NCBI GenBank assembly: GCA_964484485.1
Contig: CAZAGD010000065.1
Span: 7,490 to 71,489, forward strand
Source: an uncultured Syntrophaceae bacterium
Lineage (GTDB): Bacteria; Desulfobacterota; SM23-61
Direction: 5' to 3'
Length of the DNA: 64,000 nt
Within the stretch, counting starts at the first letter, position 1, and each line of letters begins with the position of its first letter. A model generated the notes under the pieces. The model saw nothing but the letters and a program-made list of their open reading frames with translations, searched no databases and was not told where the DNA came from. Shown here in pieces: positions 10,967 through 53,662 of this stretch. A program made the position numbers and the translations under genes.

Positions 10967-12867
10967 TATGAAACGGTGGTCTTTCTCTTTTTGAGGAACC
11001 AATATATTATAAAAAGCGCTACAGGGATTATAGCGGAAATGGCGTAGATAAGGTTAGGATGGAAAATAATTACTAAGGAAAAACCGGCGAGAATGAGGCG
11101 CATGAGTATGTCCACCATCTGTTTTTCACTATATTGGGCCTGCCACGCAAATACTATGCCTAAAGTTCCGGCCATCAATAGGCCCATAGCACCGAGTTGC
11201 GCTATACCAGGCTCGATAACTAATTGCGGCCGGGAAAAAACCCCTCCCATGAGCACGAAAATGACACTACATAATTGAATAGCCCGAAATAGAGTAGCAT
11301 TAAACCCGGCCTCCGCAATTTTAGACGTAACCGCCGCCGATACAGATGTGGGTGGAGTAAGTTCGCCCCATACAGCCACAAAAAAAGCAAAGAAATGAAT
11401 TACCCACGGATTTATGCCAATCTTTTGCATCGCCGGCGCAATAACTAAAACGGTAATTATATAAGTAGGCGCTGGCGGAAGACCAGTGCCTAAAAGAGAA
11501 CCTAAGATAAAAGCTATTAGAACCATAGCCACTATATTCATGCCCGCAGCTTCCATAAGGATGAAACCAATCTTTGTGGTCACCCCTGTATTCACTACTA
11601 CCCCGGTCATAATAGACAAGCTACTTAATAAAAGAGTTAAATCAAAAGTCATACTGGCAAAGTGATCGAGCATGCGCAAATAAGGTGCTCCAAATGAACG
11701 CAGAGAGCGTACGGGAGATTTTTGAAAAGCCATAAAATGAACTAAAGTAGCCGCGATAATAACGGCAATAAAGACCCGGAGAGCAGCAAGCATAGGAGGC
11801 AACTGGGTAATGCCCATCAGTAGAATCAACCCAGCAATAACTCCCCCATAAAGGATAAGATTAATTTTATCTATAAACTGCATTTCTGCCGGAATACGCA
11901 CCATCTTTTTTTGATAACGTACGGAAATTAAATATACAGCTACGCTAACCCCCAGATAATAAATTAATGCTGGAGCGTATCCTCTGGCGACGACTTCAAA
12001 GTAGCTCTTTCCTAAGAATTCGGCCATGAGGAAGGCGGCAATCCCCATGACGGGCGGCATTAATTGCCCGCCCATAGAAGAAGCGGTTTCAATGGCCGCC
12101 GCATTAACTTTAGGTATGCCACTAGCGATCATAGCTGGGATGGTGGCCGATCCGATGGTAATAGCGTTGGCTGCTCCACTACCACTTACCGTACCTACGG
12201 CCATAGATCCTAAAACTGCTGCTTGTGGTAACGCGTGGGCCGATTTATTAGCCAAACGAGAAGCTGTCTTCACGATAGATTCCACGCAACCAAAAGCGCG
12301 CATGACGCTTAAGACAAGTAAAAAAGATCCGATCAAGGTAAGAGCAAGTTGTGGGAGATTGGAAAAGACTCCGGTAGCCAGCTCTACGCTCATGGAGGTA
12401 AAAATCCTTTTCCAACTTAAGCCGGGATGGCCGAACATGCCCGGAATCAGCCAACCATAGACCGCATAAATGATCAAAATTAGATTAAGAACAAACAAAG
12501 CAAAGTGCCGCTTGCGCGTATATTCCAAAACTAAGATAAACATGAAGCCGCCGATGATTATGTCCGTGGTGTTCCACACTCCGGCCCGCACTGTACCTAT
12601 CGTTTCAAATTCCAAGCCGATATAAAAGAGGACGACGAAAGAAAGGCCCAAATAAATAAAGGCCATTATGTAATTGGCGGTAGGACTGAGCTTGGGGTAA
12701 AATTCATTCTTCCGTAAGCAATCAAGGGTAAAAAGAATAAAAGTAATGGGCAACAAAACCACCGCTAAGAGCGTTGGCCCCCCTTCGCCGGTTATATAAT
12801 AATGGAAAAGGTAACCGAAGAAGAATAAAGCAAACAGAGTATAAAGATTATTAATAAAAGACTTCAT
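10963..12867 (-). CDS. TRAP transporter fused 4TM/12TM permease (TAXI-type)
   Basis: 634-aa polytopic membrane protein with a DctM-like core and an N-terminal DctQ-like extension. Lies directly downstream of a TAXI-like solute receptor gene. Confidence 0.7.
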   Translation of the reverse strand: MKSFINNLYTLFALFFFGYLFHYYITGEGGPTLLAVVLLPITFILFTLDCLRKNEFYPKLSPTANYIMAFIYLGLSFVVLFYIGLEFETIGTVRAGVWNTTDIIIGGFMFILVLEYTRKRHFALFVLNLILIIYAVYGWLIPGMFGHPGLSWKRIFTSMSVELATGVFSNLPQLALTLIGSFLLVLSVMRAFGCVESIVKTASRLANKSAHALPQAAVLGSMAVGTVSGSGAANAITIGSATIPAMIASGIPKVNAAAIETASSMGGQLMPPVMGIAAFLMAEFLGKSYFEVVARGYAPALIYYLGVSVAVYLISVRYQKKMVRIPAEMQFIDKINLILYGGVIAGLILLMGITQLPPMLAALRVFIAVIIAATLVHFMAFQKSPVRSLRSFGAPYLRMLDHFASMTFDLTLLLSSLSIMTGVVVNTGVTTKIGFILMEAAGMNIVAMVLIAFILGSLLGTGLPPAPTYIITVLVIAPAMQKIGINPWVIHFFAFFVAVWGELTPPTSVSAAVTSKIAEAGFNATLFRAIQLCSVIFVLMGGVFSRPQLVIEPGIAQLGAMGLLMAGTLGIVFAWQAQYSEKQMVDILMRLILAGFSLVIIFHPNLIYAISAIIPVALFIIYWFLKKRKTTVSY

Positions 12868-14143: not shown

Positions 14144-14161
14144 CAAATCCCTCTTAAGTTA

Positions 14162-14395
14162 TTAATCGGAGCAAATAAATATTTACAGTTATCACTCTTA
14201 TCTTACTCCGTGGTCTGGCTTTATCGAGTTTTCCCAATGAAATTTTGTCGTAATTACCCATAAGAAATAAAACGACATGCGGCAAGGGACAAGCACTTGC
14301 CCTACATTTGAGGTTTTTTTAATTTCTCGTAGGGCAAGCCCTTGAGGCTTGCCGAACCACGCATGAAGATGTCGTTTATTTTATGCTCCCATCAA
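14162..14395 (+). mobile_element. MITE family B, copy B1 (234 bp; IS630/Tc1-like TIRs with TA flanks)
   Basis: TIRs TTAATCGGAGCA (14162-14173) and TGCTCCCATCAA (14384-14395), flanked by TA on both sides. Three internal GC-rich hairpins (GGCAAGGG/CCCTTGCC, CTTGCCCTAC/GTAGGGCAAG, GGCAAGCC/GGCTTGCC). About 87% identical over the same 234-bp length to 48794-49027. Confidence 0.6.
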
Positions 14396-14449
14396 TAAAA
14401 GGCGGAAAGGGGGGTTATGAGATGAGGAAAGTTTATGCCGTGTAGGCAG

Positions 14450-15425: not shown

Positions 15426-15429
15426 CCCT

Positions 15430-15482
15430 CTCTCCCTCCCGCCTGAATTAATCTGGAATTTAAAAACTGATCGACGGTCAGG
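15430..15482 (+). repeat. MITE family C, partial copy C3 (right half only)
   Basis: CTCTCCCTCCCGCCTGAATTAATCTGGAATTTAAAAACTGATCGACGGTCAGG matches the right arm and right TIR of C2 (53600-53662). The left arm is absent. Confidence 0.5.
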
Positions 15483-15495
15483 ACAATTTTTATTA

Positions 15496-22001: not shown

Positions 22002-24215
22002 TCACTTCTTCTCTTTTGTTTTTTCCAACTCTTTCTTGAGTCCCTGGACCTTCTCGCGAAATTCCCGGGTGACTTGATTCGACTCTTCCAAATCAGTAAT
22101 CACGTGCGGCGTGAGCAGTAAGACGGTCTCTGTTTTGTTAATATCGCGCGTTTGATATCCGAATAAAGCTCCTATGATCGGAAGGCGGCTTAGGAAGGGA
22201 ACCCCGGAAGCGCCAGCTTCTTTTTTATCTTCTATAAGGCCGCCGATGACGATAGTCTGCCCTTCCATAATAGAAAGGGTAGTTTTGGCTGTCTTTTTCT
22301 TAAATACGGGAATGTTATCGAGGCTGCCTAATTTGGTGCTCGCCACATCACTCTGCTCCAAGTTAATCTCCATAGTCACCAGCTTAGCATCACTAATGCG
22401 CGGGGTGACGGTTAGAATAATACCAATATCTTTATATTCAATTGTCCCTTCCACCACTGAAGGCGAAGTGGTAGCTGTGGTGGTATAAGTCGTAGTCAAG
22501 ATAGGTTGCGCTTTACCAATTTGAATCTTTGCTTCTTTATTGTTAGAGGCTAAGATATGGGGCGAGGAGATCATCTTAAGCCGATTTTCAATAGCCGAAG
22601 CATGAATGGCAGCAAAGAGGCGATCTGTAGAGGCAATGGAATAGCGTAAGCCGGAGGAAAAAGTTTCTGGAGTAGCTACCCCTCCCATACCTACAGTATA
22701 AGTGTAAGGTCTTACTCCCTGGACGAAGGTATCAGTGAAAGTGGAAAACTCCAGACCATATTTAGTTAAGTCAGTTAAAGTAACCTCTGCTAAAAAGACT
22801 TCAATAAACACTTGTTTGGGATAGAGATCAAGTTTCTTGATGGTTTCCAGAATAGCTTTATAATCACGAGGATAAGCGCGGATGATTAGGGCATTAGTAG
22901 TCTCGTCCACCACAATATTAATTTCTCCCTCGGGCACGCTCCCTTCTGGTAAAGGAGCTTTTTCTTCTTTAGGTGGAGTAGCTGGTGCAGGAGATGGTGT
23001 AGTAGTGGGGGTTGGGGGTTTGACGGTTCGCGCTGGGGTAGGAGGGGTAGGAGTTACGATCTTCTCTTTAAAGTCTTTTTTATCCTTGGTCGGGACATAT
23101 ACTTGTTTAAGAACCTCCGCTAAATCTTTGGCCTTCCCATTTTGGACATAATAAACAAAAACCCCCAATTTTGTCCCTTCCGGTGGTGTCTTATCCAATT
23201 CCTGCAGCCATTTTTCAACTTTTTCAAAAATTTGCGGTATGGAGCTGACTACTAAAAGGGAATTAATGCGCTGAATAGGGGTAAAGGTAATACCCACTCC
23301 CCTTCCACTCTTCACATTTATTTCTAAGGAGGAAAATATTCTTTCCATTTCTTTAGCTATTTCATTGACGTCGGCATTCATAATCGGGTAAATCCTGATG
23401 CGCATATCCGCAAAAATGTCCACATCGAAGATTTCAATTATGGCAGCGGATTTTTTTATATTGCCGGCTAAGTCTCCGATGATCAAGATGTTATGAGCAG
23501 GATGCTCTACAATATCTGCCCCTTCAGAAAGAAATGGTTTGATCATTTTGGCCACTTCGGCCACGGGTATAAATTTTAAAGGAATGATCTGAATGCTGTA
23601 TTTATCTTCTGGACTAAGATGATCGGGAAGTTTTAGGGTTGGTTGAGTATAAGCCCTTTTCGCTTCGGTCAAGGGCACAATCTCGTATATACCCTCTTTT
23701 TGGATAGCCGCCGCCCCGTTCAGGCGCAGTATCGATTGGAATATGGCTAAAAGTCCTTCGGTTGTTATTTGTCCGGAAGTATGAATATTCACTGTTCCTT
23801 TAACCCGGGGATCAACGAGATAATTTATCTTCAGCATATCGGCAATGACGCGAATGACTTCGTGCAGATCAGCATTATCAAAATTGAGGACTATCTTTGC
23901 TCCTTTAGCTACCTCGTTAGGTTTTTTTATCGGCAAGGGAGGCGGAAGCGTCACCGGTGAACTGGGCCTTCTTTTCTCTTCTATTTGGGCAGGAACTTTT
24001 GTTTCGGCTAATTTCTCTTTTTCGGACATACCTGCTGGAGGAATTTTTTCTGCCATATATCCGCTACTTTCTTTTTTAGGCATCTCCATGCTTGTTGGCG
24101 GCCTCATCCCCTCTTCCTTTTCTTTGCTTTTTTGCCCCGCCGTGGTCGCACAGCCAAAGCTTATAAAAAGAATTAATAAAATCAATAATCGGCAGTGAAT
24201 AATTCTCAGGGTCAT
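22002..24215 (-). CDS. gspD: type II secretion system secretin GspD (lipoprotein-type)
   Basis: 737 aa. Lipobox LILFISFGC at the N-terminus. N0/N1 domains, a Pro/Thr-rich linker and a C-terminal secretin domain (IGGLIEDKKEAGASGVPFLSRLPIIGALFG). Confidence 0.85.
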   Translation of the reverse strand: MTLRIIHCRLLILLILFISFGCATTAGQKSKEKEEGMRPPTSMEMPKKESSGYMAEKIPPAGMSEKEKLAETKVPAQIEEKRRPSSPVTLPPPLPIKKPNEVAKGAKIVLNFDNADLHEVIRVIADMLKINYLVDPRVKGTVNIHTSGQITTEGLLAIFQSILRLNGAAAIQKEGIYEIVPLTEAKRAYTQPTLKLPDHLSPEDKYSIQIIPLKFIPVAEVAKMIKPFLSEGADIVEHPAHNILIIGDLAGNIKKSAAIIEIFDVDIFADMRIRIYPIMNADVNEIAKEMERIFSSLEINVKSGRGVGITFTPIQRINSLLVVSSIPQIFEKVEKWLQELDKTPPEGTKLGVFVYYVQNGKAKDLAEVLKQVYVPTKDKKDFKEKIVTPTPPTPARTVKPPTPTTTPSPAPATPPKEEKAPLPEGSVPEGEINIVVDETTNALIIRAYPRDYKAILETIKKLDLYPKQVFIEVFLAEVTLTDLTKYGLEFSTFTDTFVQGVRPYTYTVGMGGVATPETFSSGLRYSIASTDRLFAAIHASAIENRLKMISSPHILASNNKEAKIQIGKAQPILTTTYTTTATTSPSVVEGTIEYKDIGIILTVTPRISDAKLVTMEINLEQSDVASTKLGSLDNIPVFKKKTAKTTLSIMEGQTIVIGGLIEDKKEAGASGVPFLSRLPIIGALFGYQTRDINKTETVLLLTPHVITDLEESNQVTREFREKVQGLKKELEKTKEKK

Positions 24216-24242: not shown

Positions 24243-25010
24243 TTATTTATCTCCCTTAATTTCTTCGGGCAGAGGGGGTCTTCTTGACGGAGGTAGAATA
24301 GAACTCGGCGGTGCGGGTGACCCCTGGAGCAAAGGCGATTGATAGGCTGGGGGTTGAATTTCTCTTGTGGGTCCAACAAAGGGTTGCGAAGTTGGGGCAG
24401 GTGGTGGCGGAGTTTTCGTAGTTGGTACCGGCCCCCCAGGAGAAGAGCGTATAGGTTCGGTGGGGCGCGTCGGAGTTCTTATCTCCCTTCTCTTTTTGGG
24501 CGATTTTAAATCATATAAAAATACTTCATACACATCCCCCGGGGCTTCTAAGACTATCCGGTCGGGTAATATTTTCGTTAGTTTATATTCTCCTATTTGG
24601 TCTCCTAAATTTAATGTTTTAGTCGCTTTCTCTCCTTTGGCCAAAGATTTTCCTTGCAGGATCAAGGAAGCCTTCTGTACTTCATCTGTTATTAATACCC
24701 CTTGAAGTTGAAGTTGAGGGCGGTTCATAGGTGTGGCCTTTGGTTGCTCAGGATTAAGAGAAACGAATTCCCTCCTTTCCGGATGGAAGATATTCTTTTC
24801 TGCAATGATTGTCAGAGAGGAGGCGTCAGCTTTGCGAATATTCAGGGTGGATAAAGGGGGCAATGTTTCTCCTTTACTATCGCTGCGCTTGCTTTCCTCT
24901 TTGACGATCGATCCCGAATCAGGCTTAGTCCAGGTTTCATAATTCTTATTAAAAAGAAAGATAATCATTACGCTTAAAATGATATTCAGAAGCCCGTAAT
25001 GCTTAAACAT
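24243..25010 (-). CDS. T2SS-associated proline-rich inner-membrane protein (GspC/PilP-like)
   Basis: N-terminal TM helix, then a central beta-rich domain and a Pro-rich C-terminus. Position between gspM-like and gspD is consistent with GspC. Confidence 0.4.
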   Translation of the reverse strand: MFKHYGLLNIILSVMIIFLFNKNYETWTKPDSGSIVKEESKRSDSKGETLPPLSTLNIRKADASSLTIIAEKNIFHPERREFVSLNPEQPKATPMNRPQLQLQGVLITDEVQKASLILQGKSLAKGEKATKTLNLGDQIGEYKLTKILPDRIVLEAPGDVYEVFLYDLKSPKKRREIRTPTRPTEPIRSSPGGPVPTTKTPPPPAPTSQPFVGPTREIQPPAYQSPLLQGSPAPPSSILPPSRRPPLPEEIKGDK

Positions 25011-25023
25011 AGATTTGCCCCGC

Positions 25024-25629
25024 TTACTTTTCTTTGATCTTTTCTGGTATCTTGCTTCCTTGCATATAGGCCGAAACCATTAAATTGCCCTGCAGAGCGT
25101 TAGGCAGGCGTGGATTAATAATCAGCAGATCCAAATCGGAGATAATTATTAATTTTTCTTGGTTCTCTAAATCAGCGATAAAGTGGCTCAAATTCATCAT
25201 ACTATTCGTGGGCAAAAATTCTATCTGCAAAGATACTTGGCGAAAGGGACCTATATCTTTGGGCTCTAAAATGCGAAAACTCCTTAAACTCACAAAATTT
25301 TTTTCCGCGATTTTTTTTACCATATCCTGGAGGTTGGCGGCAGCTAACTGCAGAGTATCTCCAGAAATAAGTTTTTTATTAATTTCTTCCATCTGTTTCT
25401 TGGCTTTTTCCAAGTTTAATTCTACTTGCGACCTATTTTGCAAAATTTCGTTATACTGACTCAAGATTTTCCTTTTTAACAAGATCTCTTCTTCAGCTTT
25501 TTTCTTAGTCTCTTCCCAGGGGATAATGGCCAAGTAGTAGATGGTTAATGCGGCGACCAAGGCCAAGAGGAGCCAGAAGATGCGGGGAGAGGTAATTTGT
25601 CTCGGGGATACCAATTTTGGGGGCAGCAT
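25024..25629 (-). CDS. T2SS GspM/PilO-like bitopic protein
   Basis: 201 aa with one TM, a coiled-coil, and a PilO/GspM-like C-terminal domain. Confidence 0.45.
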   Translation of the reverse strand: MLPPKLVSPRQITSPRIFWLLLALVAALTIYYLAIIPWEETKKKAEEEILLKRKILSQYNEILQNRSQVELNLEKAKKQMEEINKKLISGDTLQLAAANLQDMVKKIAEKNFVSLRSFRILEPKDIGPFRQVSLQIEFLPTNSMMNLSHFIADLENQEKLIIISDLDLLIINPRLPNALQGNLMVSAYMQGSKIPEKIKEK

Positions 25630-25631
25630 AA

Positions 25632-27038
25632 TTAAAGCCTCTTTTTTTCCAGGTACATGCGAATTTTAAACCTTTCTTTTTCCTTATCACTACCCAAACG
25701 GCGATCGCGTTCTTTAGTCACCGGGGCCAAAAATTCCACTTTCTCAAAGAGCGGAGAGCGGTCAAGCAACGGAATAAGGTCAGAGGCTGAATCGGCGAAT
25801 CCACTAATTTCTATTTCGCGACCAGTAGCTTTTAAATTCCATATCCAAACTGTGGGGGGCAATATTTGGGTTAGCTCTTTCAAAATATCTATCTTACGGA
25901 CTTCTAAAGAACTAAGCTTTTCAAACTCCGCTATCTCTTTGAGAATCTTTTCCCTTTCTTTCTTTAAATTTTCCACGGCGGTTACTTCGGGTTTCTTCCT
26001 ATTTACTTCGGCCCGTAAAAATTGCAGTTCATCTTGGATTTTTCGGTATGAACCCCATACCCAAGAAAGAATAAGCAAAATGGTTAAAGAAAGCAAAAAT
26101 ATAAAAAGAGGCTTACCCATCTGGCGAGTTTTTTTCTTTTCCTCCTCCGCGAGAAGATTCAATTTATAAGGCGTCTTTATTAATCCCGGCAAAGGAACTC
26201 CCACGCCGCTATAAATGGCCGGAGGTAAAGATTCTCCTCGCCTTGTTTTTATTTTATGCCGTGGGGGAGGAGTTATATACTGCAAAGAGGGATGGTCAAG
26301 CCATGAAGATACAGATTTTGTTTCTGCTCCTGTTCCGTATACGTAAAACTCAGTTTGCCCCAGTTCGGTCTCTGGAACTCCACCCATTTGACAAATTTGA
26401 ATAATCTTCTCCCCTTTTTTTTCAGAAGGTAAGGTAAAAAGAAAGTTTTCCTGCCATTGCCCTTCCTTGAGAAAATTAATCTCCGCCATTGATCCCTGCA
26501 GGTCGAGTAAAACCGTATTATTTTTATAATTCCCTCCCACATGGTAAAAGAAAAGGTTGAGCGCTCCTAAGGAAGAAATCTGGATAGCTCGGGGTTTAAG
26601 ACCAATTTTCTCTAATAGAGCAAGATAATGAGCAACTTCTCTTTTCTTGCTAAAGAGAACTACTAAACTTAGTCCTTGCCCGTCCCGATGGAGAATTTGA
26701 TAATCAAAACAAATTTCTTCTACTTCCCAGGGAACGTATTTAGGCGCCTCATACTCTAAAACCTGGCGCAGATTTTCTTGAGCAGCTAAGGGCAAACGCA
26801 AGAAACGGATGACGGTTTTTTCCCGCGGCATAGCCAGAAAAACTTTATCATTAGCTACGCCATATTGAGCCACAAAATTGCTAAGGAAAGGAAGCTGATC
26901 CTCAACGGAAAAATCTTCTGCCCAAGTTTTTACCCGATAATCCACCAAGCTAATCCCTCGCCAAGCTTTTTGCAAAAGGCAAAGGACTAAATGATTCTTT
27001 CCTAAGTCAATTCCTAAGCTTAAATTGTTACCAGCCAT
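25632..27038 (-). CDS. gspL: T2SS GspL-like protein (actin-like cytoplasmic domain + TM + periplasmic domain; PilM/PilN-fusion-like)
   Basis: N-terminal GIDLGKNHLVL actin-like ATPase fold, about 310 aa. Followed by the TM helix KPLFIFLLSLTILLILSWVWG and a coiled-coil periplasmic segment. Confidence 0.6.
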   Translation of the reverse strand: MAGNNLSLGIDLGKNHLVLCLLQKAWRGISLVDYRVKTWAEDFSVEDQLPFLSNFVAQYGVANDKVFLAMPREKTVIRFLRLPLAAQENLRQVLEYEAPKYVPWEVEEICFDYQILHRDGQGLSLVVLFSKKREVAHYLALLEKIGLKPRAIQISSLGALNLFFYHVGGNYKNNTVLLDLQGSMAEINFLKEGQWQENFLFTLPSEKKGEKIIQICQMGGVPETELGQTEFYVYGTGAETKSVSSWLDHPSLQYITPPPRHKIKTRRGESLPPAIYSGVGVPLPGLIKTPYKLNLLAEEEKKKTRQMGKPLFIFLLSLTILLILSWVWGSYRKIQDELQFLRAEVNRKKPEVTAVENLKKEREKILKEIAEFEKLSSLEVRKIDILKELTQILPPTVWIWNLKATGREIEISGFADSASDLIPLLDRSPLFEKVEFLAPVTKERDRRLGSDKEKERFKIRMYLEKKRL

Positions 27039-29222: not shown

Positions 29223-29711
29223 CTAAATTTTTTCTATTTCTACTAAGCCGGTTAAAAAACTGATCTTGATGAGGTACCCTTTTTGCTCTGGATCGGCCAG
29301 CAGTATTTGGCCGCCATTGGCCTGCCCTGTAGGGTAAAATTCAATAGCCGGTAAATCTGTATTGTATTTCCCGGGGTTTATTTCTTCTCGCAAATTTATG
29401 CCCGCGGGGATTTGATATTTAATCTTCTCTATCCAGGTGATACCTGTTTCTTCTTTTTTTTCTGATATTAGCGCCCGGACGATTAATTCTCTTTGTTTTT
29501 GATCGATAAGGATTTGATGTATTTGCCCTTTTTGAATCGTGGCGAGACGGCAATAGCGTAAAATTCCCGCTATTTTTTGGGCCGTTCCTTTTAATTCTAC
29601 GGCCTTGGCCAGGCGGGCCATAGAAGGGACGACTAAATACCCGGCCAGGCTCAACAAGATAAGAACCAAAACTAATTCGAGGAGCGTAAAGCCTTTATTT
29701 TTTCTCATCAA
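29223..29711 (-). CDS. gspH: T2SS minor pseudopilin GspH-like
   Basis: KGFTLLELVLVLILLSL prepilin motif. 162 aa. Confidence 0.6.
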   Translation of the reverse strand: MMRKNKGFTLLELVLVLILLSLAGYLVVPSMARLAKAVELKGTAQKIAGILRYCRLATIQKGQIHQILIDQKQRELIVRALISEKKEETGITWIEKIKYQIPAGINLREEINPGKYNTDLPAIEFYPTGQANGGQILLADPEQKGYLIKISFLTGLVEIEKI

Positions 29712-30135
29712 TATCCTTCCAGCTCACAATATCTTGATTTTCCCCTTCCCCGCCTTCAACTCCATCCAGGCCATATGAAATTAAATCATACTCTCCATGC
29801 TCTCCCGGACATTTATAAACATAGGCTCTCCCCCATGGATCTTTGGGGATTTCTTTTGGCAAATAAGGACCTTTCCACCCCTCCATTCCCGAGGGTTTCT
29901 CTCTTAAAGCTCTTAATCCTTCTTCGGTAGTGGGGTAACGGCCTACGTCCAAGCGTAAAGCATCCAGAGCCGTCCCGAATAGCTCAATCTGCGCTTTGGC
30001 TGCCTTTTGTTTAGCTGTACTCACTTTGCCGAAAAGTCTTGGGCCCACTAAGGCAGCTAACAGACCAATGATAATAATTACTATTAGCAATTCAATCAAG
30101 GTGAATCCTTTAACTCTCCTTGATTTTCTCAGCAT
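29695..30135 (-). CDS. gspG: T2SS major pseudopilin GspG
   Basis: KGFTLIELLIVIIIIGLLAALVGPRL...RLDVGRYPTTEEGLRAL is the canonical GspG sequence. 146 aa. Confidence 0.85.
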   Translation of the reverse strand: MLRKSRRVKGFTLIELLIVIIIIGLLAALVGPRLFGKVSTAKQKAAKAQIELFGTALDALRLDVGRYPTTEEGLRALREKPSGMEGWKGPYLPKEIPKDPWGRAYVYKCPGEHGEYDLISYGLDGVEGGEGENQDIVSWKDIDEKK

Positions 30136-30159
30136 CTATCCTCCTTAGAATCTACCCTT

Positions 30160-30324
30160 TATCCCCCACTCTCCCCCGTGGTCGGGTGTCAGTAGGACAG
30201 TGTCGGAACGACAATCGTACCGATTCGTCCCGACTCTTATCTACTCTCCCCATGCTTGGGGAGAGGTTTTAGGTTGAGGGGTTAAAAATGGCCAAGGTCA
30301 TTTATTCAATGCTTCTATTAATCA
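30160..30324 (+). mobile_element. MITE family A, copy A1 (5'-truncated; fills the gspF-gspG intergenic space)
   Basis: About 90% identical to 37640-37797 and 44820-44991, including GTCGGAACG...CGTTCCGAC and TCTCCCCA...TGGGGAGA hairpins and the right TIR-like end ATGCTTCTATTAATCA. The left TIR is missing. The element ends at the gspF stop codon. Confidence 0.5.
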
Positions 30325-31539
30325 TTAAAAAGGAATCTCTTGTAAACTAAAAACTGCTAAAAGCATGGAGATGACGATAAATCCAATAATAAGTCCCATG
30401 ACTAAGATGATTAAGGGTTCCAACAAGGAAACTAAACGCTTGGTAGTGTTTTGAATGCTCTCTTCATAGCTAGTAGCTACTTTGTGCAACATCTCTTCCA
30501 GTTTTCCGGTTTCTTCCCCAACCTCGATCATATGCACAGCGAGGGCGGGAAAGATCTGTATTTCTTTTAAGGCTCGCGCCATCCCTTTGCCTTCCCGCAG
30601 CCGTTCCTGGACATAATCAATGGCCTTGGCTACAGCTTGGTTTTGAGAAACTTCTCTTACCAGACTAAGGGCAGACAAAATGGGTACGCCGCTTTGTAAC
30701 AAAGTTCCCAAAGTCCTCGAAAATCTGGCCACTTCAATTTTTTTTATGAGCGAGCCGAAGGCCGGCCAGGATAATTTGAAACGGTCCCAGCGCCATCTTC
30801 TCTCTTCGCCTTGAATATAGGCTTTCAAACATATGTAAAAAAAACCAATTAAAACAATTCCTAACCACCAATAATTGCGAAAATATTGACTTCCCACCAA
30901 GACCATCTGCGTCGGCAGAGGAATAGCTTGACCAAGATCGGCAAAAAGGCGACTGAAACGGGGGATAACGAAAGCTACCAAAATAGTAATGGAAACGGCA
31001 CTCACGGCAGTCAATATAACCGGGTAGATTAATATGGAAATCAAATACTCCTTTATTTCTTTTACTCTTTGCAAATACTGCACCAAGCGCATAAAAATGG
31101 TTTCTAAAAAACCCCCTACTTCCCCAGCTTTAACCATGTTAATGTATAAATTAGGAAAAACCTGCGGATGATTGGCTAGGGCTTCTCCTAAGGAGCTTCC
31201 GCCGCGGATCCGAGCTAAGACATCGCGGAGAATTTCTTGCATTCTTAGATCGGGAGTTAAAGAAGCTAATATATCTAAGCTGCGGTCCAAAGGGAGCCCC
31301 GCGGAAATTAATGTAGCTAACTCCTGCGTAAAGGTCAACAGATTACTTATTCTCCTCCGCCCGGAAGGGAATGAGGGAAGACGCCATTTTTTTAAGGTTC
31401 TCTGCCGGGAGACAACGCGAACGGGTATATAACCCTGGTCTTGCAAATTGCGGACAATGGTTTTTTCATCCTTTCCTTCGAGAAAGCCTTCAACTACTTG
31501 CCCAGTATTAGTTATCGCTTTATAAAAATATTCAGCCAT
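30325..31539 (-). CDS. gspF: T2SS inner-membrane platform protein GspF
   Basis: 404 aa with two GspF/PilC repeats and 3 TM segments. Confidence 0.85.
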   Translation of the reverse strand: MAEYFYKAITNTGQVVEGFLEGKDEKTIVRNLQDQGYIPVRVVSRQRTLKKWRLPSFPSGRRRISNLLTFTQELATLISAGLPLDRSLDILASLTPDLRMQEILRDVLARIRGGSSLGEALANHPQVFPNLYINMVKAGEVGGFLETIFMRLVQYLQRVKEIKEYLISILIYPVILTAVSAVSITILVAFVIPRFSRLFADLGQAIPLPTQMVLVGSQYFRNYWWLGIVLIGFFYICLKAYIQGEERRWRWDRFKLSWPAFGSLIKKIEVARFSRTLGTLLQSGVPILSALSLVREVSQNQAVAKAIDYVQERLREGKGMARALKEIQIFPALAVHMIEVGEETGKLEEMLHKVATSYEESIQNTTKRLVSLLEPLIILVMGLIIGFIVISMLLAVFSLQEIPF

Positions 31540-31595: not shown

Positions 31596-33308
31596 TTAAG
31601 TGATATTTTCTTCCTGAGTTACCCTCAAAACCTCGGAGATCGTGGTTATTCCGCGTTTTACTTTCAACCAACCATCTTCTCTTAAAGTGCGCATCCCCTT
31701 CTGCAAGGCTACCTGTTTTATGGTATTGGCATCTTTTCTATCTAAGATCAATCGTTGAATTTCCTCGTCCACCTTAAGCAGTTCAAATATGCCTGTTCTT
31801 CCCCAATATCCTGTGTGCGAACAGTTCGCGCAACCCCGGACTTCGTGAATTTTAAAAAATGGTAATTCTTCTTTAGCAATTTTCATCTCTTTTAAGACTT
31901 GGGGTTCAGGAGAATAACTTAGCCGACAATGAGGACAGGATACGCGTACTAATCTTTGAGCTAAAATACCCAAAATAGTAGAAGAAAGTAGATAATCTTC
32001 CATCCCCATGTCAATGAGGCGGGTAATAGCACTGGGAGCGTCATTGGTGTGGAGGGTACTCAAAACTAAATGGCCGGTAAGCGCTGAGTGGATGGCTATT
32101 TCAGCAGTTTCGGCATCGCGAATTTCTCCAATAAGGATCACATCCGGGTCTTGGCGCACTATCGAACGCAAAGCGTTGGCAAACGTAAGACCAATGGCCG
32201 GCTTTACTTGGATCTGATTAATGCCGGGTAATTGATACTCTACGGGATCCTCTACCGTGATAATCTTTTTTTCGGCAGAATTTATTTTTTGTAAGGCACA
32301 ATATAAGGTCGTAGTCTTACCGCTCCCCGTGGGGCCGGTGACCAGGATTATGCCATGAGGATGACGAATAAGTTCTTCCACTTCTCGGCGGGTGTCTTCC
32401 TGGAAGCCGAGCTGTTCCATTTCCAAAACCATGCTGCCTTTATCCAAGATGCGCAAAACAACAGACTCTCCGTGAATAGTAGGCACAGAAGAAACTCGGA
32501 AATCAATTTCTTTTCCCTTAACGCGCAGCATCATCCGCCCATCTTGAGGAAGACGTCTTTCGGCTATATTTAGCTTGGCCATAATTTTTAAACGGGAAAT
32601 TATGGCTGCTTGCAGTCGCTTCGGAGGTGATTCTACATCGTGGAGAACGCCATCTATTCTATAGCGCACCCGAAAGTGATCTTCAAAAGGTTCGAAATGT
32701 ATATCACTAGCCCTTCTTTCAATGGCCTTGGTAATAATTAAATTTACTAACCTGATTACCGGCCCTTCCGAAGCCATATCTCTCAGAAGATCAACATTTT
32801 CTTCCTCATCGCTGCGATACTCAGGCAAACGATCAATGTCTTCTATAATCTTCTCCATGGAAGTTAAGCCAGAACCATAAACCCGATCGATGCCTCGCTT
32901 AATGTCTTCTTCCAAGCCAGCCAAGACTTTAATTTCATACTTTATGGCTAAACGCAGAGCTTCCAAGGCATGAAAGTCTTGTGGGTTGGCCATTATTATA
33001 GTTAAAGTATTATTTTCTAATTTAGCCGGCAAAATTTTAGCGGCTTTCATAAAATGGAGGGAAATTTGGTCAAAAAGAATTGGTTCATCTGGAAAATCTT
33101 CTGCCTTGGCAAAAGGGACTTTAAAAATTTCTGCCAAAGCCGATTGATATTCGGCTAAAGTTATATAACCTTTTTTGAGCAGGATTTCTTCTAAGGAATA
33201 TTTGTCATCTAAAGGGTCTTCCTTTATTAATTTTTCATAATCCCCTTTTTTTAATATACCTTTGTTAATTAAATGGTTTAAAATATAAATCTTAAAATTT
33301 TTCGTCAT
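31596..33308 (-). CDS. gspE: T2SS ATPase GspE with MshEN-like N-terminal domain
   Basis: Walker A GPTGSGKTTTLY, Asp/His boxes and a tetracysteine motif (CPHC...CANC). Start moved to the MTKNF Met (33308), which has a GGAGGG RBS. The ORF-track start at 33458 would overlap the divergent MFS gene. The N-terminal 100 aa resemble the MshEN/GspE-N1 fold. Confidence 0.85.
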   Translation of the reverse strand: MTKNFKIYILNHLINKGILKKGDYEKLIKEDPLDDKYSLEEILLKKGYITLAEYQSALAEIFKVPFAKAEDFPDEPILFDQISLHFMKAAKILPAKLENNTLTIIMANPQDFHALEALRLAIKYEIKVLAGLEEDIKRGIDRVYGSGLTSMEKIIEDIDRLPEYRSDEEENVDLLRDMASEGPVIRLVNLIITKAIERRASDIHFEPFEDHFRVRYRIDGVLHDVESPPKRLQAAIISRLKIMAKLNIAERRLPQDGRMMLRVKGKEIDFRVSSVPTIHGESVVLRILDKGSMVLEMEQLGFQEDTRREVEELIRHPHGIILVTGPTGSGKTTTLYCALQKINSAEKKIITVEDPVEYQLPGINQIQVKPAIGLTFANALRSIVRQDPDVILIGEIRDAETAEIAIHSALTGHLVLSTLHTNDAPSAITRLIDMGMEDYLLSSTILGILAQRLVRVSCPHCRLSYSPEPQVLKEMKIAKEELPFFKIHEVRGCANCSHTGYWGRTGIFELLKVDEEIQRLILDRKDANTIKQVALQKGMRTLREDGWLKVKRGITTISEVLRVTQEENIT

Positions 33309-33456
33309 AATTTTGCCCTCCACTCTGCCTGCTATCAATTTCAGAACCTGGCCAAAGAGGGCAGGGTAATTTTGGGTTAGATTATATAATAATAATCGGC
33401 AGAAAAAAATATTAAAATTACTATTTTTATGCCGCAAAGGACCGGTTTCCATCTTC

Positions 33457-34650
33457 ATGGGCTATAAATTAACCAGATATGAAGAGAAGAAATTTTGGGG
33501 CCTAAATCGCCAAATTTTTGTTCTTGGTTGGGTCAGCTTTTTTACAGATGTGAGCAGCGAGATGATTTATCCGCTCCTCCCCGTCTTTTTGACCAGCGTT
33601 TTAGGGGCCAGCCCTACTTTCTTAGGTTTTATTGAGGGGATAGCGGAAACTACGGCTTCCCTTTTCAAGCTCTTTTCTGGTTGGCTGTCCGATCGATGGC
33701 AAAAAAGAAAAGCCTTGGTGGTATTTGGTTACTTACTATCTTCTGTCGTTCGTCCCCTGGTAGCAGTCGCTACTTCAGCCAGCCAGGTGCTAATAATTCG
33801 TTTCCTCGACCGGGTGGGGAAAGGAATCAGAACGTCTCCGCGTGATGCTTTAATCGCTGACTCAACCACAGAAGATGTTCAAGGAAAATCTTTTGGTTTT
33901 CAAAGGGCTATGGATCATACGGGGGCGGTAATTGGGCCATTCATCTCATTTTTATTGATCTCTTATTTCACCCAAGATTACCGCCTTATCTTTGCCTTGG
34001 CTTTTATCCCTGCTTTTGGCGCTGTTTTCATCTTAATTGGGGGAGTGCGCGAAAAAATTATTTCCCCCCTCCCTTCCGTAAATCCTTGGAGAAAATTTAG
34101 CCTAAAATCTTTTTCTCCATCCTTCCGCATTTTTCTTCTCGCCGTCACTATTTTTAGTTTAGGAAATTCCAGTGATGCTTTCTTGATTCTGCGCGCTAAA
34201 GAAAATGGGGTAGGCGTGGCTTGGATTCCTGTCCTTTGGATGATCCTCCATGTGGTGAAATCTCTTTCAGCTACCCCCGGTGGAATTCTTTCCGATCGTT
34301 GGGGGAGGAAAAAGACCATTATTCTCGGTTGGCTTCTTTATAGCGCCATTTATTGGGGATTTGCTTGGAGCAAATCCCCAGAAGCAATCTGGCTTCTCTT
34401 TACGGTCTACGGTCTATTTTATGGCCTTACGGAGGGGGCGGAGAGGGCCTTGGTCACGGATTTAGTTCCGGCCACTTGGCGCGGCACAGCTTTTGGTTTA
34501 TACAATTTCTCCGTTGGGTTGAGTACTTTACCCGCGAGTCTGCTCCTAGGCTTTTTTTGGGAAAAATTCGGCGCTCCCTTCGCTTTTTCTTTCGGAGCCT
34601 CCTTAGCCCTCCTGGCCGTATGTTTATTGGGGTTTGGTCTAAAAAAATAA
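33457..34650 (+). CDS. MFS transporter
   Basis: 397 aa with 12 TM helices. MFS loop motif GWLSDRWQKRK. Confidence 0.7.
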   Translation: MGYKLTRYEEKKFWGLNRQIFVLGWVSFFTDVSSEMIYPLLPVFLTSVLGASPTFLGFIEGIAETTASLFKLFSGWLSDRWQKRKALVVFGYLLSSVVRPLVAVATSASQVLIIRFLDRVGKGIRTSPRDALIADSTTEDVQGKSFGFQRAMDHTGAVIGPFISFLLISYFTQDYRLIFALAFIPAFGAVFILIGGVREKIISPLPSVNPWRKFSLKSFSPSFRIFLLAVTIFSLGNSSDAFLILRAKENGVGVAWIPVLWMILHVVKSLSATPGGILSDRWGRKKTIILGWLLYSAIYWGFAWSKSPEAIWLLFTVYGLFYGLTEGAERALVTDLVPATWRGTAFGLYNFSVGLSTLPASLLLGFFWEKFGAPFAFSFGASLALLAVCLLGFGLKK

Positions 34651-37601: not shown

Positions 37602-37795
37602 TTAGGCGGAGCAATTAAATATTTACGCTTAATCCCTTCAACCACCCCCCCTGTGTTCGGGTGTCAGTATGACAGTGTCGGAACGACAATCGTACCGATT
37701 CGTTCCGACTCTTATCGACTCTCCCCAGGCGTGGGGAGAAGGCCAGAATAAAGGGTTAAGAAGGGCACAGGTCATTTATTTAATGCTCCCATTAA
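37602..37795 (+). mobile_element. MITE family A, copy A2 (194 bp; TIR TTAGGCGGAGCA / TGCTCCCATTAA, TA flanks)
   Basis: Complete copy. The 12-bp TIRs are flanked by TA at 37600-37601 and 37796-37797. The internal hairpins are the same as in A1 and A3. Confidence 0.6.
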
Positions 37796-37964
37796 TAATG
37801 CCCAAATTTTACTGGGAATTATTAATTAACGTCAGCAAATTTTGTTAAATTTTAATGTACTTATCGTTTAAATAAGTAGATAAGTTTAGCATAGCAGAAA
37901 ATGGTCATCCTGAAAATAAATATTTTCCCTTATTCTGTCCCAATTTTTCCCCAGATTCTAAAAA

Positions 37965-44589: not shown

Positions 44590-44781
44590 TCCCTTGCCGA
44601 AAAGAGGCAAGCCCTAAGGGCTTGCCCTACGAGAAATTAAAAAAACCTCAAATGTAGGGCAAGGGCTTGTCCCTTGCCGCATTTGGTTTTATTTCTTATA
44701 TGTAATTACGACACAATTTCATTGGGGAAAGTAGATAAAGCCAGACCACGGAGTAAGATAAGAGTGATAGCTGTAAATATT
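44590..44781 (-). mobile_element. MITE family B, copy B3 (reverse orientation, truncated at both ends)
   Basis: The reverse complement matches the B1/B2 core (AAATGCGGCAAGGGACAAGCCCTTGCCCTACATTTGAGGTTTTTTTAATTTCTCGTAGGGCAAGCCCTTAGGGCTTGCC) and the upstream CCGTGGTCTGGCTTTAT...ATGAAATTGTGTCGTAATTAC segment. Its left end abuts the A3 TIR and its right TIR is missing. Confidence 0.5.
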
Positions 44782-44783
44782 TA

Positions 44784-44991
44784 TTACTCGGAGCAATTAA
44801 TTATTTACACTTATGCCCCTCACCCTCCCCCCGTGGTCGGGTGTCAGTATGACAGTGTCGGAACGACAATCGTACCGATTCGTTCCGACTCTTATCGACT
44901 CTCCCCATGCTTGGGGAGAGGGTTAGGGTGAGGGGTTGAAAACGGCGGATGTCATATATTTATTGATCTCATTAATAATTGCTCCCAGTAA
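44784..44991 (+). mobile_element. MITE family A, copy A3 (208 bp; TIR TTACTCGGAGCA / TGCTCCCAGTAA, TA flanks)
   Basis: Near-perfect 12-bp TIRs with TA at 44782-44783 and 44992-44993. Same internal hairpins as A1 and A2. Confidence 0.6.
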
Positions 44992-48670: not shown

Positions 48671-48793
48671 TTTTGGCCCTCCTTTTTTAAAACCTTAGCA
48701 AACTACTTCTCTCCTGCCAAGAGGGAAAAATTTTGACCGCCAAGCGATTTTAATTTTTTAGTCCCTCGGCATAAAGAGGCTCTGGGGCAATTA

Positions 48794-49027
48794 TTAATCG
48801 GAGCAATTAAATATTTACAGTTATCACGCTTATCTTCCTCCATGCTCTGGCTTTGTTTGCTTGCCCCAATGAAATTGTATCTTAATTGCCCATAAGAAAT
48901 GAAACCAAATGCGGCAAGGGACAAGCCCTTCCCCTACATTTGAGGTTTTTTTAATTTCTTGTAGGGCAAGCCCTTGGGGCTTGCCGAACCCCGCATTAAG
49001 ATGTCGTTTATTTTATGCTCCCATTAA
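48794..49027 (+). mobile_element. MITE family B, copy B2 (234 bp; TIR TTAATCGGAGCA / TGCTCCCATTAA, TA flanks)
   Basis: Same length and architecture as B1, with TA at 48792-48793 and 49028-49029. Explains the spurious ORFs 48703-48924 and 49008-49334. Confidence 0.6.
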
Positions 49028-49208
49028 TAACTCTCCTCTGCCCAGCTGGGCACTTGGTCTTAATCAATAAATAGGCTAACTTTCTCCTGGGGTGGAGACT
49101 GTGTCGCCATGAGGGAGGAGGGCCGGAGGCAGGCCAAAAAGGAAACCAGTTGTTTTTTTGTGAAGAAAGAGCTATCCTATGCAAAATTTTTAAGAAAGGA
49201 GGAGTCCC

Positions 49209-53545: not shown

Positions 53546-53662
53546 AACCGTCTAACAGTTTTAATATTTCTCGCCAGCAGGAAACAGGCGGGAGGGGGAG
53601 AGGCGAGCCTCTCTTCCTCCCGCCTGAATTAAGCTGAAATTTAAAAAATGATCGACGGTCAG
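53546..53662 (+). mobile_element. MITE family C, copy C2 (117 bp) with 11-bp target-site duplication
   Basis: TIRs aACCGTCtaaCAg ... tgaTCGACGGTcag. Internal hairpin CAGGCGGGAGGGGGAGAGGCGAG/CCTCTCTTCCTCCCGCCTG. Perfect direct repeat TTAAAATTACT at 53535-53545 and 53663-53673. Confidence 0.6.

Follow-up and report, generated by a model that had tools for sequence, protein, structure and literature searches.

A MITE remnant between gspF and gspG in the type II secretion operon of an uncultured Thermodesulfobacteriota lineage, probably tolerated and decaying neutrally

The gspF-gspG spacer and its repeat

The window, i.e., the whole 64,000-nt stretch of DNA analyzed here, contains a type II secretion system (T2SS) cluster of 11 co-directional gsp genes, which runs from 33458 to 22002 in the order gspE-F-G-H-I-J-K-L-M-C-D. 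On the minus strand, gspE (31596-33458) is followed by gspF (30325..31539, from the ORF list; Pfam T2SSF, E 2.9e-60), the stop codon of which (TAA) lies at 30325-30327, and by gspG, encoding the major pseudopilin (29695..30135; Pfam T2SSG, E 4e-41, in addition to the N-methylation motif N_methyl). Four minor-pseudopilin-like genes, including gspK, are found between gspG and gspL, and the cluster ends with the PilM/PilN-type gspL (25632-27038), gspM (25024-25629), gspC (24243-25010, a weak assignment) and the secretin gene gspD (22002-24215). The spacer between gspF and gspG is exactly 189 nt long (30136-30324), with the gspG ATG at 30135, and is an outlier among gsp junctions: the remaining junctions checked are overlaps or gaps of at most 56 nt (56 nt for gspE-gspF and 15 nt for gspK-gspL). 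The C terminus of GspF (...QEIPF*) is common to all relatives compared. At the other end of the cluster, the longest gspE ORF (620 aa), starting at 33458, overlaps the start of a divergent MFS transporter gene (33457); gspE is called at 570 aa in the sister lineage described below, suggesting that the true start in the window is probably ~150 nt further downstream (window 33300-33458).

An earlier note on this DNA had proposed that a MITE copy fills the 189-bp gap inside the T2SS operon, and both the 11-gene cluster and the blastn matches of the spacer to two complete copies bear this out. Comparing the window with itself revealed a three-copy family (30172-30324, 37647-37799 and 44827-44979), in which a shared terminal segment lengthens the 37647 and 44827 copies to ~208 nt. 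The two long window copies match the spacer with E values of 3e-43 and 8e-51, and a 24-nt core word that occurs three times in the window was absent from all of 100 shuffles. The repeat similarity of the gsp spacer is therefore far beyond chance.

The remnant of this family, family A, occupies 30150..30321, as defined by these matches and by alignments. It stands in the “+” form of the element on the plus strand of the window, the gsp mRNA carrying the reverse complement. Alignment of the spacer with the two complete window copies extends from ~30150/30163 to 30324 and shows that the copy is one-ended, with the right terminal repeat present and the left, gspG-proximal one lost. The right terminal inverted repeat, GTCATTTATTCAATGCTTCTATTAA (30297..30321, plus strand), aligns with the right terminal repeats of complete copies and ends with the TTAA at 30318-30321. 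It is followed by TC at 30322..30323 on the plus strand, a degenerate target-site duplication that was originally TA, as indicated by the TA flanks of six complete copies and by the empty site in the related genome L003 (see below), and then by a single native base, 30324, which separates the target TA from the gspF stop codon. The TIR-like string ATGCTTCTATTAATCA quoted previously is present at 30309-30324 and indeed abuts TTA, the complement of the stop codon (30325-30327); the element proper, however, does not run directly into the stop, given that it ends at TTAA and that TC and one native base intervene.

At the opposite end, homology fades over 30147-30163 and the outer ~13-22 nt of the left repeat are absent, in agreement with the previous description of the copy as 5′-truncated. 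That end had been placed ~25 bp from the gspG ribosome-binding site, but homology can be traced to ~5-18 nt from the Shine-Dalgarno sequence (30140-30147). The native Shine-Dalgarno region of gspG (30140..30149, minus strand) reads TAAGGAGG (30140-30147), then ATAG, then the ATG at 30135, and TAAGGAGGATAG-ATG is identical in the window, in the sister lineage and in the MITE-free L003. The junction of the truncated end, at ~30147-30163, lies just beyond this region and displays TTTAA/TCTAA microhomology, the TTTAA-like sequence being found both in the element (GTAAATATTTAA) and in the native sequence just upstream of the Shine-Dalgarno (..AATTTTTAA). We infer that the tip of the terminal repeat and the bulk of the ancestral spacer were lost in a single deletion.

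Inside the copy lie the conserved family core (30178..30243), which is identical to the young subfamily at 63/66 positions, a large interrupted hairpin, GTCGGAACGA..TCGTCCCGAC (30202..30234; 14 bp, -16.8 kcal/mol as sense RNA), and a small hairpin, CTCTCCCCA-TGCT-TGGGGAGAG (30244..30265; 9 bp, -15.7 kcal/mol as sense RNA). Two ACTCTCCCC direct repeats are present on the plus strand, the first at 30168..30176 and the second at 30243..30251, the latter forming the 5′ half of the small hairpin. The ORFs across the copy are all of 50 aa or less, and no Shine-Dalgarno is visible upstream of the ATG of a 33-aa ORF in the element (30152-30253).

Copies, structure and mobility of family A

Scanning a metagenome collection with a 23-nt core word, we found 14 further loci, none overlapping the window and all from two JGI samples (contig prefixes Ga0209102 and Ga0129301). 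Over 7.2 kb, the window is matched at 100% identity by the gsp contig of JGI sample 3300025794 (prefix Ga0209102), which hence comes from the same population. Family A comprises at least 17 dispersed copies (three in the window and at least 14 in the same population), which are all intergenic, lie in both orientations relative to the flanking genes and in many cases are truncated or are chimeras with a second family, family B. Complete copies are non-coding and 192-194 nt long (~193 nt). Their left end, TTAnTnGGAGCAATTAAATATTTAC, shows zero to two mismatches in most copies and has an imperfect inverted counterpart at the right end; the resulting terminal inverted repeats are imperfect and ~25 nt long, with 21-nt arms that are 76% complementary in complete copies. 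TA is found on both flanks in six of six complete copies, including the two in the window. The older of these, at 37602..37795 (plus strand; TA duplications at 37600-01 and 37796-97), is shared with the sister lineage, while the young copy at 44784..44975 (plus strand; TA duplicated at 44782-83 and 44976-77) corresponds to an empty site in the sister.

The young copy sits within a family-B copy (44606-44785), where it interrupts the terminal repeat; this family-B repeat continues after the duplicated TA. Mobility is evident from two sites, the gsp site being empty in five outgroups and the 44606-44988 site in the sister lineage. At the latter, the whole nested A-in-B block (~500 nt, 44606-44988) is absent and the intergenic region measures 311 nt (L065 3817-4127) instead of 820 nt, indicating that families A and B both moved after the lineages split. 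Given its size, its lack of coding sequence, its terminal inverted repeats, its target duplication, its dispersed copies and its filled and empty sites, family A is a bacterial MITE family.

We assign family A to the IS630/Tc1-mariner style because of the TA duplication alone, a hallmark of this type of mobilization, as for RUP of Streptococcus pneumoniae, a MITE derived from IS630/Tc1-mariner and mobilized by IS630-Spn1 (PMC2229807). In common with RUP, family A has a length in the ~100-200 nt range, no coding sequence, terminal inverted repeats and TA duplication, is present between genes in many copies, and has members inserted into other repeats or into IS ends (PMC2229807). Unlike RUP-type MITEs, it resides in an uncultured Thermodesulfobacteriota host, shows no similarity in GTDB representatives, viral contigs or plasmids, and comes with no transposase in our searches: no autonomous parent IS, sought as paired matching terminal repeats around a long element, was found in the window, in L001-L003 or in L026-L039. 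The exact core 24-mer gave 0 matches in GTDB representative genomes, the 23-mer 0 matches in viral contigs, and the full element no match in PLSDB plasmids, so that family A is not widespread in those collections. It appears to be undescribed among Rfam, GTDB representatives, viral contigs and PLSDB; this TA-duplicating MITE family, which had not been named before, was active in this lineage recently.

Other repeats were noted as well. Family B, a second MITE family of ~240 nt, has the terminal repeats of family A and a different interior, with full copies at 14159-14398 and 48791-49030 and an inverted, truncated one at 44606-44785. The family-B interior holds a hairpin module of the GGCAAGGGACAAGCCCTTGCC type, which is also present alone at 11217, 44595, 44653 and 53326. 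An example of an A/B chimera is seen in L030 (9093-9381), and an element in L036 (~1389-1640) with the same termini and an interior unlike that of family B is possibly a third family. In L069 (2531-2760, JGI 3300010308), the same family-A copy stands beside a PIG-L gene and has a different far flank, with a biotin-protein ligase gene in place of the family-B copy and a periplasmic binding protein gene, which reflects either rearrangement by way of the repeat or a chimera created when the metagenome was assembled over the ~200-nt repeat. Further short dispersed repeats, direct and inverted, such as the CCCTCCCGCCTG..GACGGTCAG motifs, show that the genome is rich in small repeats; in the window they are found at 4439-4498, 4547-4597, 15426-15486 and 53547-53662, and as the pairs 14092-14144/15376-15428 and 15233-15280/44467-44514. 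Four repeats with a spacing of ~261 nt (window 1979-2798) lie within a 595-aa ORF (1737-3524, minus strand), which suggests a tandemly repeated protein domain of ~87 residues.

The insertion site in outgroups and in a sister lineage

As outgroups, we used contigs encoding proteins 74-91% identical to GspF, which represent five lineages. The gspF-gspG spacers are all short and MITE-free: 53 nt in L003 (a GTDB genome labelled Thermodesulfobacteriota; GspF 91% identical), 46 nt in L050/L051 (89%), 49 nt in L052 (87%), 52 nt in L053 (81%) and 70 nt in L054 (74%). None of these five outgroup spacers gave a blastn match to the element, and all carry the same Shine-Dalgarno sequence as the window. 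In L003, the empty site reads TAA-T-TA-AGGGAG, with a TA exactly where the window element inserted. The absence of the element from the outgroup spacers and the empty TA site of L003 indicate that the gsp insertion is derived.

Sister-lineage contigs were retrieved by exact GspG protein look-up, in 13 further samples (JGI, ENA and Logan). Their gspF differs from that of the window by ~5% at the nucleotide level, while GspG is 100% identical, with 0 amino acid changes in spite of 25-26 third-position changes, which argues for strong constraint on GspG in both spacer states and for a functional operon. All sister contigs share the insertion with the window, including its mutated duplication and its truncated end. 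The spacer, however, is only 116 nt long in the sister, a segment of ~73 nt between the two ACTCTCCCC repeats, including the large hairpin, being gone. In L002 (Logan), a further 9-nt loss reduces the spacer to 107 nt. The loss of a palindrome flanked by 9-nt direct repeats is a classic result of strand slippage. Thus, one site provides a natural series of empty (46-70 nt), filled (189 nt) and internally deleted (116 and 107 nt) states. As a separate observation, L002 (Logan SRR5216256, 1429-2897) combines a gspF of the window type (1 nt difference in 1215) with a spacer and gspG start of the sister type, the type changing at the MITE; either the strain is a recombinant or the contig is a chimera.

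Where the spacer is shared, window and sister differ by ~8-10% (our own count on the alignment), compared with 12% at fourfold-degenerate sites in gspF and 27% in gspG; the spacer thus diverges at roughly the neutral rate, with no sign of extra constraint. The old 37602 copy has likewise changed in the sister, the orthologue of which (L055 2223-2379 and L056 1403-1559) has independently lost 49 nt of the core, with a junction between GGTCGGG and CCTTATCGAC and boundaries unlike those of the deletion at the gsp site. The arms of the two old window copies differ by 14-20% from those of the sister orthologues (our own count on the alignment).

Given that both old orthologous copies (gsp and 37602) are core-bearing in the window and core-less in the sister, and that the arms vary far more than the core, one could imagine the reverse polarity, in which the 116-nt form is ancestral and the core spread secondarily into core-less copies, by gene conversion or as a nested mini-element. 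We regard this scenario as very unlikely. The missing segments differ in length (73 versus 49 nt) and in boundaries, the gap at the gsp site corresponds to the stretch delimited by a pair of 9-nt direct repeats, a deletion signature, the flanking homology available for conversion amounts to only ~14-22 nt, and the young complete copies already carried the core when they transposed. The core as a discrete nested insert was rejected for now, the core-less forms at the two loci having different boundaries.

Based on these comparisons, we consider it likely that the gsp copy is a tolerated, co-transcribed and neutrally decaying remnant of a TA-duplicating, IS630-style MITE that inserted 1 nt past the gspF stop codon. 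The element inserted before the window and sister lineages split from their common ancestor, at a TA separated from the stop by one base on its downstream side; a later deletion, probably mediated by the shared TTTAA-like microhomology, removed the outer gspG-proximal repeat and most of the native ~50-nt spacer, halting just short of the Shine-Dalgarno. The operon stayed intact, and the remnant is presumably transcribed within the gspE..D polycistronic mRNA and evolving neutrally. In the sister lineage, a slipped-strand deletion between the two ACTCTCCCC repeats would then have eliminated the large hairpin. MITEs in operon spacers are a well-known phenomenon (PMC2229807, PMC3184786, PMC2649163); the present case suggests that a MITE one base past a stop codon can be tolerated in an operon for essential machinery, provided that the downstream ribosome-binding site survives.

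Hairpins, expression signals and the conserved core

In agreement with the earlier note, which had predicted two strong hairpins in the polycistronic mRNA, both hairpins fold strongly in the predicted sense RNA. As sense RNA, the 111-nt core region has a folding energy of -49.6 kcal/mol (z = -4.5) and forms two clean hairpins of 9 bp and 14 bp, and it is still folded in silico at 70 °C (-22.6 kcal/mol). The element is presumably co-transcribed with the operon, and its transcript presumably remains unprocessed.

The existence of GC-rich hairpins raises the question of a partial intrinsic terminator or attenuator between gspF and gspG, as had been put forward. In a terminator consensus scan, however, no hairpin on the sense (minus) strand was followed by a U-run within the spacer. 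The sole terminator-like site, which consists of the small hairpin (30244-30265) and GTTTTAGGTT, is on the plus strand and hence antisense to the operon; none of the Pfam-assigned ORFs on that strand runs into it. Moreover, nine essential T2SS genes lie downstream and are conserved. Termination within the spacer is thus hardly credible.

We also considered that a promoter internal to the element could boost gspG..D transcription, since promoters arise at the ends of some MITEs, e.g., Correia elements (PMC2649163). A TTGAAT motif is found in the arm of the element adjoining gspF. The consensus scan, limited to a sigma-70-type consensus that may not be the organism's own, nevertheless detected no sigma-70-like promoter on the sense strand within the element, and the two matches in the region fall inside gspG, making such a promoter highly improbable.

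A third possibility is that the insertion was exapted as an RNA element, matching the previous suggestion of an mRNA-stabilizing or processing role: an endonuclease would cut the AU-rich arm or the stem, the hairpins would protect the 5′ end of the gspG..D transcript or the 3′ end of the gspF transcript, and GspG would rise relative to GspE and GspF. The major pseudopilin is required in excess, in line with such a role. The arrangement is also suggestive, with an AU-rich single-stranded arm preceding strong sense-strand hairpins located directly upstream of the gspG Shine-Dalgarno, as is the unusual conservation of the core. GC-rich hairpins in operon spacers, as in REP/BIME, can stabilize upstream mRNA against 3′ exonucleases. 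REPs are units of 20-40 nt that have neither terminal inverted repeats nor TA duplications and are mobilized by RAYT tyrosine transposases, whereas family A, which shares the GC-rich hairpins in an operon spacer, is ~193 nt long with terminal repeats and target-site duplications.

Closer precedents exist among co-transcribed MITEs, namely Correia elements with RNase III and ERIC with RNase E (PMC2229807, PMC2649163). Like family A, Correia elements (CREE/NEMIS) of Neisseria have inverted repeats enclosing a conserved core, a duplicated TA, and both full-length and internally deleted forms; they are often co-transcribed with neighboring genes and have been suggested to function in mRNA processing (PMC2229807, PMC2649163). 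In their transcripts, RNase III cleaves a long duplex formed between the repeats (PMC2229807). In contrast, family A is unrelated in sequence, no promoter-like ends were detected, and the long repeat-to-repeat duplex cannot form in the gsp copy because the left terminal repeat is lost, leaving stems of only 9 and 14 bp. The ERIC/IRU sequences of enterobacteria are, similarly, imperfect palindromes of ~127 nt between co-transcribed genes, with reported orientation-dependent effects on the stability of flanking mRNA segments (PMC2229807). They too are unrelated in sequence, and their effects were demonstrated by experiment, while the gsp copy is known from sequence alone and is polymorphic and decaying.

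Several results speak against an exapted RNA. The comparison with related genomes, proposed in the earlier note, argues against a selected role: all five outgroups lack the element, and the sister lineage has deleted the large hairpin and the core with it, yet keeps an identical GspG. The spacer, in addition, diverges at about the neutral rate, and the same element is found elsewhere in both orientations. Covariation analysis of three hairpins in 17 copies revealed pairs that are either invariant or broken, with no compensatory change, and the changes in the small hairpin among copies are all disruptive; this lack of covariation gives exaptation no backing and is uninformative either way as to RNA structure. 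Searching Rfam 15, we obtained 0 matches in the window at the gathering score, the spacer giving only noise (E >= 0.4). A stabilizing or processing role is disfavored because the insertion is recent and lineage-restricted and the hairpin core is dispensable in the nearest relatives, and we consider an exapted RNA element unlikely.

A tolerated, neutrally decaying remnant thus remains our preferred explanation, under which any effects of the hairpins on the fate of the gspF/gspG mRNA in the window strain would be incidental and strain-specific rather than a selected function. Hairpins as strong as those predicted (z = -4.5) could alter mRNA decay in this strain, and we give such a strain-specific effect a small but real chance. 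Were the hairpin-bearing form to change the GspG:GspF ratio, the insertion would gain significance, and the three natural spacer alleles would be ready-made test constructs.

The conservation of the core is the one odd feature of the family. Across family A, the core is more conserved than the terminal repeats: among the six complete copies, identity is 0.96-1.00 in the core, compared with 0.89-0.91 in the terminal repeats and 0.65-0.82 in the subterminal arms, such that copies with arms diverging by 20-35% still have near-identical cores. In the two old window copies, the core is 1/66 and 3/66 off the consensus of the young subfamily, i.e., four changes were observed versus ~10 expected neutrally (Poisson P ~0.03, a rough estimate of our own). 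The low divergence of the old cores may be due to gene conversion, with the numerous young copies as donors, or to a degree of constraint on the core. It is conceivable, but doubtful, that the ~66-nt hairpin core is a selected functional module, such as a binding site for the element or the host or a structured RNA, or that it is kept uniform by concerted evolution: in the window lineage, even copies that are old and dead have kept it near the consensus, but both sister orthologues have lost it. If the core is uniform through concerted evolution, the T2SS mRNA may be genuinely affected by the gsp copy in this lineage.

Partition function calculations predict, finally, that the gspG Shine-Dalgarno UAAGGAGG pairs with the last gspF codons UUCCUUUUUAA, a pairing that is predicted in the MITE-free L003 and in the MITE-bearing sister alleles alike. 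Calculations with and without the element showed no consistent effect of the MITE on Shine-Dalgarno accessibility. In window coordinates, the two partner regions correspond to 30136-30150 and 30328-30340 (minus-strand RNA), and the pairing may represent a translational-coupling structure that now contains the MITE.
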